Shown here: positions 32,501 to 35,500 of the stretch, one piece after another
Numbering within the stretch: the stretch's first letter is position 1
Layout of the letters: each line of letters begins with the position of its first letter
Assembly: GCA_039028615.1 (NCBI GenBank)
Contig: JBCCHT010000012.1
Coordinates: 96,001-160,000, forward strand
Source of the DNA: Myxococcota bacterium
GTDB taxonomy: Bacteria > Myxococcota_A > Polyangia > Nannocystales > Nannocystaceae
DNA: 64,000 bases
Direction of reading: 5' to 3'
Position numbers: made by a program

Positions 32501-35500
32501 GAAGCACGGGGCGCGGCATCGTGCTCGATCAGAACATGCCCGAGTCGGTGAAGCGCAGTCGCTACGGCAAGGGCGACGAAGCCCAGCGACCCACGCTGCG
32601 CACGGTGGGCGGCTCGGACGATCCTTCGGGACCCGCCTCCGAGCCCGACGCCACCCGCAGCACGGACGAGCCGGCCACGGACATCGAGGCGACGGACGAC
32701 AGCCAGGTCAAAAAGCGCCGCGCGGCCTTCAAGGTCATCGACGGCGGCGGCTGATCCGAGAGGTCGAGACGATGAAGCCGGGCGTGCTTCCGAAGATCCT
32801 GTCCGCCAGCGTGTTCGGACTGACCTTGGCGCTGTTTTCGGTGTGGTGGTTCATGATCCGCGCACCGGGCCCGGCCGAGGTCTGCGAGCACATCCTGCAG
32901 GTCACCCTGCGCGAGGCGTCGGGCCAGGGCCTCAGCCCCGAGAGCCAACAGAAGCTGGTCGAGTCCACGCGCACGCAGTGCATCGAGCACAAGCAGGACA
33001 AGATCCAGCTGCGCGGGCGCATCAAGTACGCCACCTACGCCAAGTGCGTGATGGCGGCCCAAGACTTGCTGACCATCGGCCGCTGCTAAGCTGTCGTGGT
33101 GCTCGAGCTGCGGGTCCACGAGAAGGTAGAGCCCACGACCGAGGCGCGGCTTTCGGGCGTGGTCGCCCATCAACATACGCTGCGCGACGTCGTGGCCTGG
33201 ATGGCGGCGGCCGGGGGCACCCCGTCCATCGTGACGATCATCGAGCAGGACGAGTTCACCAGCGATGTCGTCGTCCGCGAGTCCGACGGCGTGTTCCTGG
33301 TCTACGACTGCACCTGACTGGGCGCGGTGACGGCGGTCGCCGTCTGGGCCCACGCTCCCAACGCCGACGAGCTGCTCGACGCGCGCATCAGCGCGGGATG
33401 GCGGCCCGTGCCCACCGCGACCGTCAACGGGCCCGTGATCATGGGCCACGCCGCCACCCGTTGTACGCCGCAGCTCGGCTGCCGCTAGCTGGCCGAAAAG
33501 CGGCGCAGGACAGGGTTCTGCGGGCCTGGCCGCCCAAGGGTCCTTTTTTCGAGATTTTCGTGAACTCGATCGAACGGCCGACAACTACTCCGGCGAAGGG
33601 GTTGTCCGCATGTCTCGTTCTCGCTCGTTGCTGATGCTGCTCGCCATTCCGTTCGCCACCGCCTGCGCCGGGGGGACCCAGAACGAAGGCGCGGGAAGCC
33701 TGTCCGGCGGATACAGCGCGGGCTCGCCCGGCGGGGGCATGACCGACGGCGAGGAGCCCGAGGGCAGCGACACCGACCCCTACCCCACCGCCAACCCGAT
33801 GCCGGCCGAGGGTAGCGGGGATGGAGGCACCGACGGCTGGACCTCGGGGCAGGGAGACGACGGCGCCCCGGAGTGCTGCGAGGTCGCGCCCACCCCCGGC
33901 TGCGGCAGCGAGGTCACCGAGGCCTGTGTCTGCACGTTGATGCCCGCGTGTTGCCAGCAGGTGTGGTCCGCGGACTGTGTCGATCTGGCCGTGGAGTGTG
34001 GCGATCCGTACTGCGTCGAAGGGGGCAGCGACGACGGCGACATGGGCACCACGGGCGGCGACCCGGTCGAGCTGCCCTGCGACGACGCGTTCGACTTCTT
34101 CCCGCTCCACCCCGCCCCCGGCGTCGGCTTCGACGGGATGTTCAGCGACCCCAACGGCCTGACCTGGGTGCACATGCGGGCGGAGGGACCGGGCGGCGTG
34201 ACCATCGACGGCAGCTGGGTCGGAGTGGAAGGCGGCAGCCCCTTCACCTGGACGTGGAGCTTCGCCGGGATGGCGGCCGGGACCTGGACCTTCACCTTCA
34301 CCCATCGGGAGAGTGAAGGCGGACCCGAGCTGGTGCACGGGACATGTCAGAAGCAGTTCTGAGCCTAGGGAGGCCCGGCTTCGGTGGTGAGCTCGATGCG
34401 GGTGGCCTCGAAGCGCGAGCCGTCGCGATCGAAGCGCGGCTGCCCCTCGAGGCGGTAGCGAGCGTCGAGGTCGAGCGCCTGGGCTCCGCACGGCGACGGC
34501 GGCGGCACCTCGCCATCGCTCGGCTCGGTGCAGCGGGCGGGCACCTCGATGCCCAGAGGACGAAGCACGACCGTCATCGAGCGCTCATCCTCCGCGTCGA
34601 CGAGCAGCCACGGCCCGGGGCCTTCGGCCTCGTAGCGCAGGCGGGCGAACAACACGATCGTCTCCCCGTTCCAGCGCGCGGGATGGCCGGCCATGTCGTT
34701 GACCCCCAGCGTGGCCGGGGCGGCGGGCGGGACATCGGGAGGCCGGGCGGAGTCCTCGGGTGATGGCTCGACCCGCGTCGGCGTGGGCTCGGGCCCGGCC
34801 GCGCGTGGGCCGGCGCACCCGAACGCCAGCATGCTCGTGGCCAGCGCGATCCGCTTCATGGATCGAGCTGCTTCATGCTCACCGACAGACCCATCTGCGT
34901 CTCGGCTTTCTGATGCTGCCCGAGCACCGTCAGGTCCATGACCATCGACATGTCCATCGTCATCGTCATCTCGACGGGCGCGGCCGCGCTCAGGTCGATG
35001 GTGCTCGACCCCTGGCCCGAGGCCCGAAACTCGCTCGCCCGCGCGGTGGACTCGGTCATGCCGGGCGCCTGCACGTTGGGATCGAGCAGCTCCTGCTGAA
35101 CCTGGACGTCGAACATCAGGCGGTCGCCGTCCCGCGACAGCAGGTGGTAGCGGCTCGTCTGGCGCAGCTTCATCCCGCTCTGCTTGATGTCCTCCACCGT
35201 CGTCCACTTCGCGCCCGGCCCCACCGCGGGCTCGGGCAGCGGCACCGACATCTGACCCAGGCTCTGGGTCATCTGCTGCATCATCGTGTGCACGTTGGCG
35301 GGCAGGTCGCGGGGAAGCTCGGCCTCTCCTCCCAGCACCGTGCCCCGGTCGTTCATCTCGATGCGCCCGCGATACTTCATCAGGGGCATCACCGTCTTCT
35401 CCACGTTCTCGACCACCGCAGGGGGGCTGTCTTCGGCCGCGGTGACGATGACGCCCCCGACCGATTGCTCGACGTGAAAGCCCGCGTCGCCCACTTCGGT

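Follow-up and report, generated by a model that had tools for sequence, protein, structure and literature searches.

We identified, on the forward strand at positions 33096-33488 of the window (the whole 64,000-nucleotide stretch of Myxococcota DNA that was analysed), a 130-codon frame that as a whole is best explained as a single gene whose product is a cytoplasmic selenoprotein of ~130 residues, an explanation we strongly favor. The frame has a GTG start at 33096 or 33099, a TAG stop at 33486-33488 and a sole interruption, an in-frame TGA at codon 74 (33315-33317, forward strand), and comparison of sequences makes it very likely that this UGA is decoded as selenocysteine (putative Sec74). 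Translation with TGA as U gives 130 residues in which U74 lies within L-V-Y-D-C-T-U-L-G, while under table 11 the frame breaks into a 73-aa ORF (33096-33317) and a 53-aa ORF (33327-33488). An earlier note on this DNA had joined these two gene calls into one 130-residue frame with a single TGA, and our frame and translation agree with it. The note had further proposed that UGA encodes Sec in an unnamed family, a proposal supported here by the Sec machinery, the conserved TGA column, the Cys homologs and the fit to the constraints on bacterial SECIS elements (bSECIS). Inspection of the window protein revealed no evident signal peptide or lipobox, and a scan of 31900-33800 found no promoter or terminator.

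Matches were found in 27 of 72 other Nannocystaceae genomes at 42-58% identity, all 27 with the in-frame TGA, the same counts and identities as had been reported earlier; the single alignment column that the TGA had been said to occupy in 16 of 16 loci now extends to 28 of 28 sequences (the window and the 27 orthologs). A scan of 185,579 species returned 364 relatives and the TGA column was read in the best 80 loci, which belong to Myxococcota, Acidobacteriota and Gemmatimonadota and have TGA in every case. Among 400 other Myxococcota genomes we obtained 18 full matches, all with TGA, and two more fragments that likewise contain it, so that the earlier claim of 19 carriers stands as to the TGA but becomes 18 full matches in number. 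The 401 Acidobacteriota genomes contributed 16 loci, 13 with TGA and three with a Cys codon (TGC or TGT) in its place. Taken over all loci read, TGA is found in 121 of 124 and TGG in none.

Coding constraint continues beyond the TGA. In the downstream half P88, L93, L94, R97, G101, W102, T107, G112, G117 and A119 are invariant in the 28 orthologs, third-position entropy after the TGA is 1.1-1.9 bits under conserved residues, and conserved residues lie under variable third codon positions on either side of it. We therefore regard as extremely improbable the reading in which the TGA is a true stop, whether between two small genes or in a decaying pseudogene. Gene callers do give two ORFs, public databases hold the 72-aa N-terminal product, and a GTG at 33327 is a possible start for the second half. 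However, in all three phyla each half is conserved in frame and the stop keeps to one column, an in-frame start within eight codons past the TGA is present in only 46 of 96 distinct Sec sequences, and the Cys-containing homologs are continuous; a stop would also sever the predicted domain in the middle of a beta-hairpin, and a pseudogene would not keep residues invariant under variable third positions.

A profile search of 1.84 billion representatives gave 840 matches at E ≤ 0.001. The earlier count of 782 came from another profile; that the matches are many stands, and the figure is our own. Two tandem-repeat proteins, P0021 and P0023, were excluded from the representative matches as spurious. 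Among the best 150 of the 840 matches, 84 are fragments that stop just before the Sec column, and the 22 full-length non-Sec proteins include 11 with Cys, four with Ser, two with Arg, one with Gly and one with Pro at that column, which bears out the claim that most members are cut at the UGA and that some carry Cys. Trp is found at the Sec column in three database proteins (P0002, P0007 and P0036), which we attribute to gene calling under a TGA=Trp table.

The window's genome encodes tRNA-Sec (68.6 bits; called by ARAGORN as SeC with anticodon tca), SelA (selA, 402.7 bits), SelB (selB, 280.6 bits) and SelD (selD, 385.4 bits), each above its curated cut-off. An in-frame TGA also occurs in an FdhA-like ORF, evidence of a second Sec client in the genome. 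Of the 27 carrier genomes within Nannocystaceae, 24 contain selA and the remaining three contain tRNA-Sec at 70-75 bits. The three Acidobacteriota genomes with the Cys form all contain selA, although one copy looks broken; the choice between Sec and Cys thus does not follow the presence of the machinery, and co-occurrence with the machinery, considered as a discriminator between the two forms, was rejected on these same three genomes.

Directly downstream of the UGA lies a SECIS-like hairpin (33329-33344, forward strand), formed by a 6-bp stem (33329-33334/33339-33344) and a GGUC loop (33335-33338) and contained within codons V78-V83, with the apical loop 17 nt after the UGA. The core, ACGGC-GGUC-GCCGU at 33330-33343, is 12 nt after the A of the UGA and 15 nt from its U, in keeping with the 14-16 nt given in the earlier note, and the GGUC loop that the note described is present in 28 of 28 same-family sequences. 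The SECIS of E. coli fdhF, the archetype of these elements, likewise has a GGUC apical loop, at a near-equal distance. The hairpin folds with -10.8 kcal/mol (z -2.44, with 6 of 200 shuffles equally good), and the 48-nt stretch past the UGA is no better than shuffles (z -1.0). A 2026 inventory of prokaryotic selenoproteins gives as bSECIS constraints an apical loop 3-9 nt long that has G in its first two positions and a stem of 4-16 bp (PMC13188914), together with a UGA-to-loop distance of 16-37 nt and an MFE ≤ -7.5 kcal/mol (PMC13188914, Fig. 2 legend). The GGUC loop, 6 bp, 17 nt and -10.8 kcal/mol satisfy all four. As in the Zhang and Gladyshev bSECIS consensus, as set out in PMC13188914, the stem-loop is located in the coding sequence right after the UGA, but the hairpin described here is short, has no evident bulged U and has four of its five core pairs set by the peptide.

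This last property limits what the hairpin can tell. The codons ACN GCN GUN GCN GUN (T-A-V-A-V) alone force those four pairs, and because they do so the presence of the hairpin is by itself weaker evidence; this leaves pair 24-33 and loop positions 27 and 30 as its sole free synonymous sites. Third-position entropy is nevertheless just 0.24, 0.30 and 0.12 bit at hairpin codons U+6, U+7 and U+8 (92 distinct sequences), a range of 0.12-0.30 bit that compares with 1.1-1.9 bits at four-fold codons elsewhere. These values point to selection on an RNA structure beyond the needs of the protein, although the slid-partner covariation control is not clean: across 91 distinct sequences the score is 0.108 in the true register, 0.122 with partners slid by -3 and 0.146 with partners slid by +3. 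Stem variants with both sides changed are seen (GCGGC/GCCGC and GUGGC/GCCAU). Acidobacteriota stems that encode the peptide R-A-V-A-L (CGGGC/GCCCU, AGGGC/GCUCU and CGAGC/GCUCU) keep pairing by swapped pairs, and some Acidobacteriota have an AGUU loop.

Across the wider family the hairpin is present in 74 of 107 sequences; the other 33, mainly of the Myxococcaceae and Kofleriaceae types, lack this hairpin and show weaker, varied structures, with Myxococcaceae-type members having a different, weaker structure across the conserved CGGUCUCCG stretch. RNAalifold returned no consensus structure for all 107 sequences because two hairpin types are mixed among them, and an Rfam scan of 32900-33700 (E ≤ 10) gave chance-level matches only, with no SECIS family among them.

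The absence of the canonical hairpin from a third of members, and the Trp found at the column in three database proteins, are what can be said for read-through of the UGA without selenium, by near-cognate insertion of Trp or Cys or by local recoding. We consider this very improbable. Sec machinery is present in every carrier tested, the hairpin is bSECIS-like with synonymous sites constrained where SelB would bind, TGA predominates at the loci read while TGG never occurs, and the Cys found in homologs and in the sister family described below is the classic Sec/Cys signature. Under Sec decoding, a ribosome would arrive at the UGA of codon 74, the GGUC hairpin 11-12 nt downstream would recruit SelB with Sec-tRNA(Sec), Sec would be inserted at codon 74, and 56 further codons would then be translated.

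The earlier note had also stated that neither Pfam nor NCBIfam covers the family. The window protein indeed gave zero matches to Pfam-A and NCBIfam 20.0 at E ≤ 1, and 34 family members gave only isolated single-member matches at E ≥ 0.011. A homologous-protein search with the window protein returned only two N-terminal fragments, both unnamed, a cluster look-up of ten relatives returned ‘hypothetical protein’ or no name, and PADLOC and PHROGs had nothing below E 0.01. Nor does the family appear in the 2026 inventory (PMC13188914), which covers 119 families of prokaryotic selenoproteins; the comparison was made through Pfam, NCBIfam and TIGRFAM models, and entries with only CDD or PANTHER identifiers (Trx-like, CopZ, BtuF and Fe-S oxidoreductase) fall outside it. 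According to the same source, all 119 families have a Pfam, NCBIfam, CDD or PANTHER identifier (PMC13188914), unlike the present family, which matches no Pfam-A or NCBIfam model.

The nearest kind of known system is the set of predicted small bacterial selenoproteins represented, in Table 1 of PMC13188914, by the deep-Sep ‘hypothetical protein DG/DW/DF’ entries and by GOS_B and GOS_C. Shared with these are a single in-frame UGA, a hairpin directly downstream and the existence of both TGA and Cys homologs, as are annotation as truncated ORFs, prediction by computation and functions that are unassigned. What sets the present family apart is the context D-x-T-U-L-G, which has no nearby Cys partner, and its distribution, which in the species scan is mainly Myxococcota, Acidobacteriota and Gemmatimonadota and not anaerobic Desulfobacterota or clostridia. 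The window protein does have a Cys two residues before Sec (C-T-U). Cys is found there in just 2 of 96 distinct Sec sequences, so the C-T-U pair is no feature of the family, and the family alignment has no Cys at any of positions U+1 to U+3. The earlier statement that there is no CxxU/UxxC pair is thus right for the family, but the window protein itself has C-T-U.

The predicted model of the window protein (pLDDT 94, pTM 0.87) is a single alpha+beta domain in which two helices precede a four-stranded antiparallel meander and a third helix follows it. In the model the TGA position separates strands 67-73 and 77-84, which belong to one sheet, and Sec74 is predicted to occupy the turn from the third to the fourth meander strand. 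The loop that connects beta2 and beta3 contains the motif Q51-D52-E53-F54-T55-x-D57 (33246-33266, forward strand; Q-D-E-[YF]-T-x-D in the family), of which Q51, D52, E53 and D57 are invariant in the alignment of 28 orthologs, and the topology of the meander suggests that Sec74 is close to this loop. Near the C-terminus, G117-H118-A119-A120-T121-R122-C123 (33444-33464, forward strand) is the counterpart of a family motif G-[HY]-A-A-C, with G117 and A119 invariant (n=28).

Foldseek found no match to the model in the PDB at E ≤ 0.001. The best VIA-align match in a wide search, OsmE (4dm5_A; Z 6.0, rmsd 2.8 Å over 81 residues, 12% identity), is one of the OsmE/BamE-like (SmpA_OmlA) small alpha+beta lipoproteins and falls below the stated background of Z 7-8, and RelE/HigB-type toxin chains (1wmi_C, 7nbu_Y, 5mje_A and 3bpq_D) are at background level with Z 4.0-5.0. 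No Trx-fold chain was found among the Foldseek and VIA-align matches. A profile comparison with PDB sequences gave only Rab-38 (E 0.062), and the ESM Atlas, queried with a natural Cys homolog, gave no usable match. The description of the model as confident and lacking a clear solved counterpart therefore still applies.

We newly link to the Sec family, by sequence comparison, a larger and unnamed sister family that has an invariant Cys at the Sec position. This family of ~141-aa proteins, found here in Myxococcota, has the motifs Q-G-E-F-H-H-D and T-N-C-N-G-G. In an hhalign comparison of the two families (probability 97.2%, E 2.9e-11, 81 columns), Sec74 is matched by Cys63 in the sister family, and Q-G-E-F-H-H-D aligns with Q-D-E-[YF]-T-x-D. 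Cys63 is invariant in the nine sequences compared and in a deeper 40-sequence alignment, in which C63, C87, C113, H32, H39, H40 and H108 are the invariant Cys and His residues, and no TGA was found at this column in the nine loci read. The two families share their helix order, the four-strand meander and the acidic Q-x-E-F loop; they differ in that the sister family has two further invariant Cys and an extra segment of ~40 residues before G-G-G-W, and does not have the G-H-A-A-C tail. It is much the more numerous in databases: of 8,000 candidates scored, at least 2,430 clusters reach E ≤ 0.001. Like the Sec family, it matches no Pfam or NCBIfam model, its structure prediction has no Foldseek match in the PDB at E ≤ 0.001 and a best VIA-align Z of 4.6, below background, and ten of its loci share no neighbor beyond close relatives.

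As to function, the Sec74 turn and the invariant Q-D-E-[YF]-T-x-D loop share a sheet edge and would probably form a selenol active site, in which Sec74 could cycle through a selenenylsulfide with the cysteine of the C-terminal G-[HY]-A-A-C motif as candidate partner. Of 96 distinct Sec proteins, 77 carry a Cys somewhere in the C-terminal tail, which in 65 cases occupies the G-x-A-A-C position. Our working proposal is thus a small redox protein or enzyme that uses selenol chemistry, a tentative reading to which we give somewhat less than an even chance. Like Trx, Grx, Prx, GPx and SelW-like proteins, the protein is small and soluble, with one Sec that alternates with Cys and a possible distant resolving Cys, and the family's conserved Gln and Trp recall the catalytic tetrad of GPx. 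Unlike the Trx-fold selenoproteins, it has no CxxU/UxxC and no Trx-like Pfam match, and its predicted topology is not Trx-like. Further points count against the redox proposal: Ser, Arg, Gly or Pro occupies the Sec column in 8 of 22 full-length homologs, 19 of 96 Sec proteins have no tail Cys, and no neighboring gene is conserved.

In the same selenoprotein, Sec74 could instead join His86, His118 and the C-terminal Cys as a ligand for a metal or metalloid, which would make this a small metal-binding or metal-sensing protein. The three Cys and four His that are invariant in the sister alignment form the kind of pattern that typifies metal sites; among Sec-family sequences a His follows W-D in 72 of 92 and the G-H-A His is present in 76 of 92, the tail Cys is frequent, and several metal-binding families are listed in the 2026 inventory (PMC13188914). 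Yet no candidate ligand other than Sec is invariant, with His118 often Tyr and the tail Cys missing as noted above, the sister family's C87 and C113 belong to a segment missing from the Sec family, and no metal-transport or metal-resistance genes are conserved nearby in 114 loci. We consider this reading unlikely.

ORF clustering of the same 114 loci revealed no conserved gene neighbor beyond close relatives. The largest neighborhood cluster (74 loci) is the gene's own antisense shadow ORF, and the next clusters, of at most 10 loci each, comprise an acyltransferase, a sigma factor, GlnRS, Band 7, SDR, beta-lactamase and MCP.

A broader and more speculative proposal, which we think rather doubtful when taken in full, is that the Sec family and its Cys sister form an unrecognized superfamily of small enzymes with an unseen fold and a new Sec/Cys beta-turn active site beside Q-x-E...D, and that in aerobic, large-genome bacteria of soil and sea the superfamily is a main reason for keeping the Sec machinery. 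Aerobic lineages rarely retain selenoproteins, according to a recent review (PMC13188914). If Sec is encoded as described, the selenoproteome gains a family of mostly aerobic lineages that has neither the CxxU/UxxC signature nor a Trx fold, and hundreds of genomes contain a mis-annotated gene, called either as a pair of ‘hypothetical’ fragments or as a single fragment whose other half is overlooked. A curated HMM and a Sec-aware annotation rule would mend these gene calls. The sister family offers a natural Cys comparator for why Sec is used, and the 364 relatives found among the 185,579 species include culturable, tractable myxobacteria, namely Myxococcus xanthus, Corallococcus and Nannocystis.

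The gene at 33096-33488 (+) is a single frame whose sole interruption is a TGA at 33315-33317, and translation of this codon as U gives a 130-residue protein in which U74 is flanked as L-V-Y-D-C-T-U-L-G. Under translation table 11 the frame is split into an N-terminal ORF of 73 aa (33096-33317, +) and a C-terminal ORF of 53 aa with a GTG start (33327-33488, +). The earlier note had read these two called genes as one TGA-interrupted frame and the UGA as selenocysteine (Sec); the former is borne out and the latter supported. We regard it as highly probable that this candidate selenoprotein gene belongs to an unnamed family (the Sec family) and that its UGA is decoded as Sec by the ordinary bacterial mechanism. 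That mechanism is already known; what is new is the family, a fold without a clear solved counterpart, and a sister family that has Cys instead of Sec.

Orthologues with 42-58% identity are found in 27 of 72 other Nannocystaceae genomes, the count previously noted, and every one has the in-frame TGA. The TGA falls in a single alignment column in 28/28 sequences, extending the 16 of 16 loci first reported, within the motif L-V-[YF]-D-x-[TS]-U-L-G. When one genome per species was scanned (185,579 species), 364 relatives were confirmed, and all of the best 80 loci, which we examined, have TGA at this column (79 by pattern and one, L112, by hmmalign). These loci come from Nannocystis, Paraliomyxa, Polyangiaceae, Kofleriaceae, Myxococcus (M. 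xanthus included), Corallococcus and Pyxidicoccus on the Myxococcota side, and from Pyrinomonadaceae, Blastocatellia, Gemmatimonadaceae and one MAG labelled Chloroflexia. An even sample of 400 other Myxococcota genomes yielded 18 full matches rather than the 19 claimed earlier, all 18 with TGA as claimed, and TGA is also present in two fragments. Among 401 Acidobacteriota genomes there are 17 matches: 13 with TGA, three with TGC or TGT and one that is weak and dubious.

Several observations argue for translation past the TGA as one chain. Downstream of it, P88, L93, L94, R97, G101, W102, T107, G112, G117 and A119 are invariant across 28 sequences, and the third positions of these codons have an entropy of 1.1-1.9 bits (92 distinct sequences); variable third positions under invariant residues are the mark that purifying selection leaves on a protein in this frame. 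Any ATG, GTG or TTG within eight codons past the TGA is found in only 46 of 96 distinct sequences, which means that no separate start is conserved. Proteins of the Cys form run on without interruption. In the AlphaFold model, built from 28 sequences (pLDDT 94.0, pTM 0.87), the TGA maps to the turn that joins strands 67-73 and 77-84 within a single four-stranded sheet, so that two separate products would cut a hairpin of the sheet.

The opposite strand has an ORF of 340 aa (32562-33584, −) that overlaps the candidate gene, a 105-aa ORF (32772-33089, +) and an SspB-like gene (32104-32754; PF04386, E 3.8e-8) lying upstream of the 105-aa ORF. "Homologues" of the antisense ORF cluster in 74 loci because it shadows a conserved gene. 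The plus frame has third codon positions that vary under fixed residues, relatives that number in the hundreds in databases, and a fold predicted with confidence, and we judge the antisense ORF to be the usual non-coding shadow of high-GC DNA. The 105-aa ORF, which ends six bases before the selenoprotein start and has a hydrophobic N-terminus and four Cys, is without a Pfam or NCBIfam match and was not recovered by neighbourhood clustering as a neighbour common to other selenoprotein loci; across 114 loci, the Sec family has no shared gene neighbours beyond close relatives. Directly past the stop of the gene, a weak Rfam match to M23 sRNA (33476-33524, +; 23.1 bits, where the gathering score is 41.2; E 0.063) is at chance level.

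Past the TGA a stem forms between 33329-33334 and 33339-33344 (+), closed by the apical loop GGUC at 33335-33338. This stretch of 20 nt has a folding energy of -10.8 kcal/mol (z -2.44; 6 of 200 shuffles equally stable), and a 48-nt fold is no better than shuffles (z -1.0). The bacterial SECIS model, as given in a 2026 review (PMC13188914, Fig. [quoted passage not shown] The hairpin of the earlier note is thus present here, but across the wider set it is found in only 74 of 107 sequences; the other 33, from Myxococcus, Corallococcus, Pyxidicoccus, Kofleriaceae and some others, retain CGGUCUCCG but form stems that are weaker and differ among themselves (-2.6 to -9.2 kcal/mol).

The stem coincides with the codons of a conserved peptide, T-A-V-A-V (ACN GCN GUN GCN GUN), which alone accounts for four of five core pairs, so that the synonymous sites are limited to the middle pair and two bases of the loop. 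The named helix is paired in 79.1% of cells and its covariation exceeds all 500 column shuffles (107 sequences, 91 distinct), whereas partners slid by -3 or +3 score 0.122 or 0.146 against 0.108 for the true register, and RNAalifold on all 107 sequences gave no common structure. Given the peptide-forced pairs, the unclean slid control and the lack of an RNAalifold consensus, the case for the hairpin rests on frozen sites, kept pairs and relaxation in Cys forms. Counting codons from Sec, the free sites are nearly fixed at U+6 (Ala GCG 73/76; third-position entropy 0.24 bit), U+7 (Val GTC 85/89; 0.30 bit) and U+8 (Ala GCC 58/59; 0.12 bit), and elsewhere in the gene Ala, Val, Gly, Pro, Thr and Leu codons vary freely between G and C, with some A and T. 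Pairs are kept where T...V changes to A...A (GCGGC/GCCGC, five sequences) or to V...I (GUGGC/GCCAU, four sequences), and the Acidobacteriota peptide R-A-V-A-L goes with CGGGC/GCCCU, AGGGC/GCUCU or CGAGC/GCUCU, with the second pair changed from C-G to G-C. In the three Acidobacteriota Cys-form genes third positions are relaxed (ACT GCA ...), the loops are AGUA, AAUC and AGCC, and pairs are broken in two of the three, a relaxation that, at n=3, is only suggestive.

The host genome carries a tRNA-Sec (68.6 bits; called SeC, anticodon tca, by ARAGORN) together with selB (280.6 bits, 308.5 including a C-terminal piece), selA (402.7 bits) and selD (385.4 bits), each of the sel genes above its curated cut-off, and by gene content it is equipped to make selenoproteins. 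Outside the window, a formate-dehydrogenase-alpha-like ORF on contig C36 (110514-111287; 152.8 bits) has one in-frame TGA and is probably the host's classical selenoprotein, which would give the Sec machinery a classical client. The host selD, upstream of the window on the same contig (10471-11406), has no in-frame TGA. selA is found in 24 of 27 carrier genomes, once only in part, where a contig ends; the three carriers without it (completeness 64%, 88% and 96%) all have a tRNA-Sec of 70-75 bits, and in two of them selD itself contains TGA (Sec-type SelD; G040:C237:1250-2179 and G060:C35:52381-53346). selA is kept in all three Cys-form Acidobacteriota genomes, apparently broken in one, and the choice of Sec or Cys is therefore not simply tracking loss of the machinery. 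In that one (G242:C14:159603-160797) the selA match is in pieces with stops between, and the gene may be broken or misassembled.

A profile of 28 sequences searched against 1.84 billion representatives matched 840 proteins at E<=0.001 (782 in the earlier note), 196 of them at E<=1e-10, confirming a widespread family many of whose members are split at the UGA. Among the best 150 of the 840, 84 fragments stop at ...[LV]-[VI]-[YF]-D-x-[TS], just before the Sec column, several dozen start just past it and 22 are full length; in the source databases relatives are "hypothetical protein" or without a name. P0021 (641 aa) and P0023 (1645 aa) were rejected as relatives, being tandem-repeat proteins that gain a high rank by summing 10-17 weak repeats. 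The 22 full-length proteins have Cys at the Sec column in 11 cases, Ser in four, Arg in two, Trp in two, and Gly, Pro and a gap in one each, so that the Cys-bearing minority described earlier is real but not the only non-Sec form. Trp, found at the column in P0002, P0007 and P0036, most likely reflects gene prediction on metagenome contigs under a table with TGA as Trp, so that these proteins would be unrecognised Sec forms. The codons for Ser, Arg and Gly lie one base from TGA; these residues fit replacement of the Sec codon and indicate that certain lineages can do without the selenol or thiol.

In agreement with the earlier note, the window protein matches zero models of Pfam-A and NCBIfam 20.0 at E<=1; 34 family members gave scattered single matches only (E>=0.011), and PADLOC and PHROGs gave none. 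The confident model likewise proved to be without a clear solved counterpart: Foldseek against the PDB gave nothing at E<=0.001, and the best hit of an exhaustive VIA search was OsmE (4dm5_A; Z 6.0, rmsd 2.8 Å, 81 aligned residues) against a tool background of 7-8, under which RelE/HigB-like chains (Z 4-5) also fall. We found no description of the Sec family in the literature searched, and an unnamed earlier listing may exist in survey supplements. Each of the 119 families or subfamilies in Table 1 of PMC13188914 has an identifier from Pfam, NCBIfam, CDD or PANTHER, and none as tabulated has a Sec context of the D-x-T-U-L-G type. According to the passages available, the nine new families of deep-Sep (PMC12013277) all lie within that table, BSepDB (PMC13326102) gathers known families only, Deng et al. 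2026 (Cell Rep 45:116760) is cited in PMC13188914 for unvalidated candidates, and PMC1794560 and PMC13745706 hold nothing further on the Sec family.

The CxxU/UxxC redox motif is absent from the family, as noted before, but the window protein itself has C-T-U, its Cys72 being common to only 2 of 96 sequences. The beta2-beta3 loop has the invariant motif Q-D-E-[YF]-T-x-D and in the model would share one meander edge with the Sec-bearing beta4-beta5 turn. The C-terminal tail, G-[HY]-A-A-C, has its Cys in 77 of 96 Sec proteins and also in several Ser, Arg and Pro forms. Our best reading, a tentative one, is a selenol redox site that would be resolved by the tail Cys.

Weak stop-free matches (23-29 bits) in 11 of 400 Myxococcota genomes led outside the family. 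All nine loci examined, which lie outside the window (L144-L152, in genomes G862, G641, G848, G631, G852, G695, G733, G730 and G715), code for a different protein, ~141 residues long, that bears the motifs Q-G-E-F-H-H-D and T-N-C-N-G-G. Three Cys and four His are invariant in this sister family, which speaks for the main alternative to a redox site, a metal-binding site of Sec, His and Cys; we consider that alternative unlikely. Profile-profile comparison relates the two families with a probability of 97.2% (E 2.9e-11, 81 columns) and aligns Sec74 with the invariant Cys63, which makes the sister family a second, independent case of Sec paired with Cys, here at the level of the superfamily. Neither Pfam nor NCBIfam has a model for it, the PDB offers no clear counterpart (best Z 4.6), and its predicted structure (pLDDT 89.3) has the same helix-helix-meander-helix core as the Sec family. 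Newly recognised here, it is far larger than the Sec family, with at least 2,430 database clusters at E<=0.001 among 8,000 candidates scored, none of them named.
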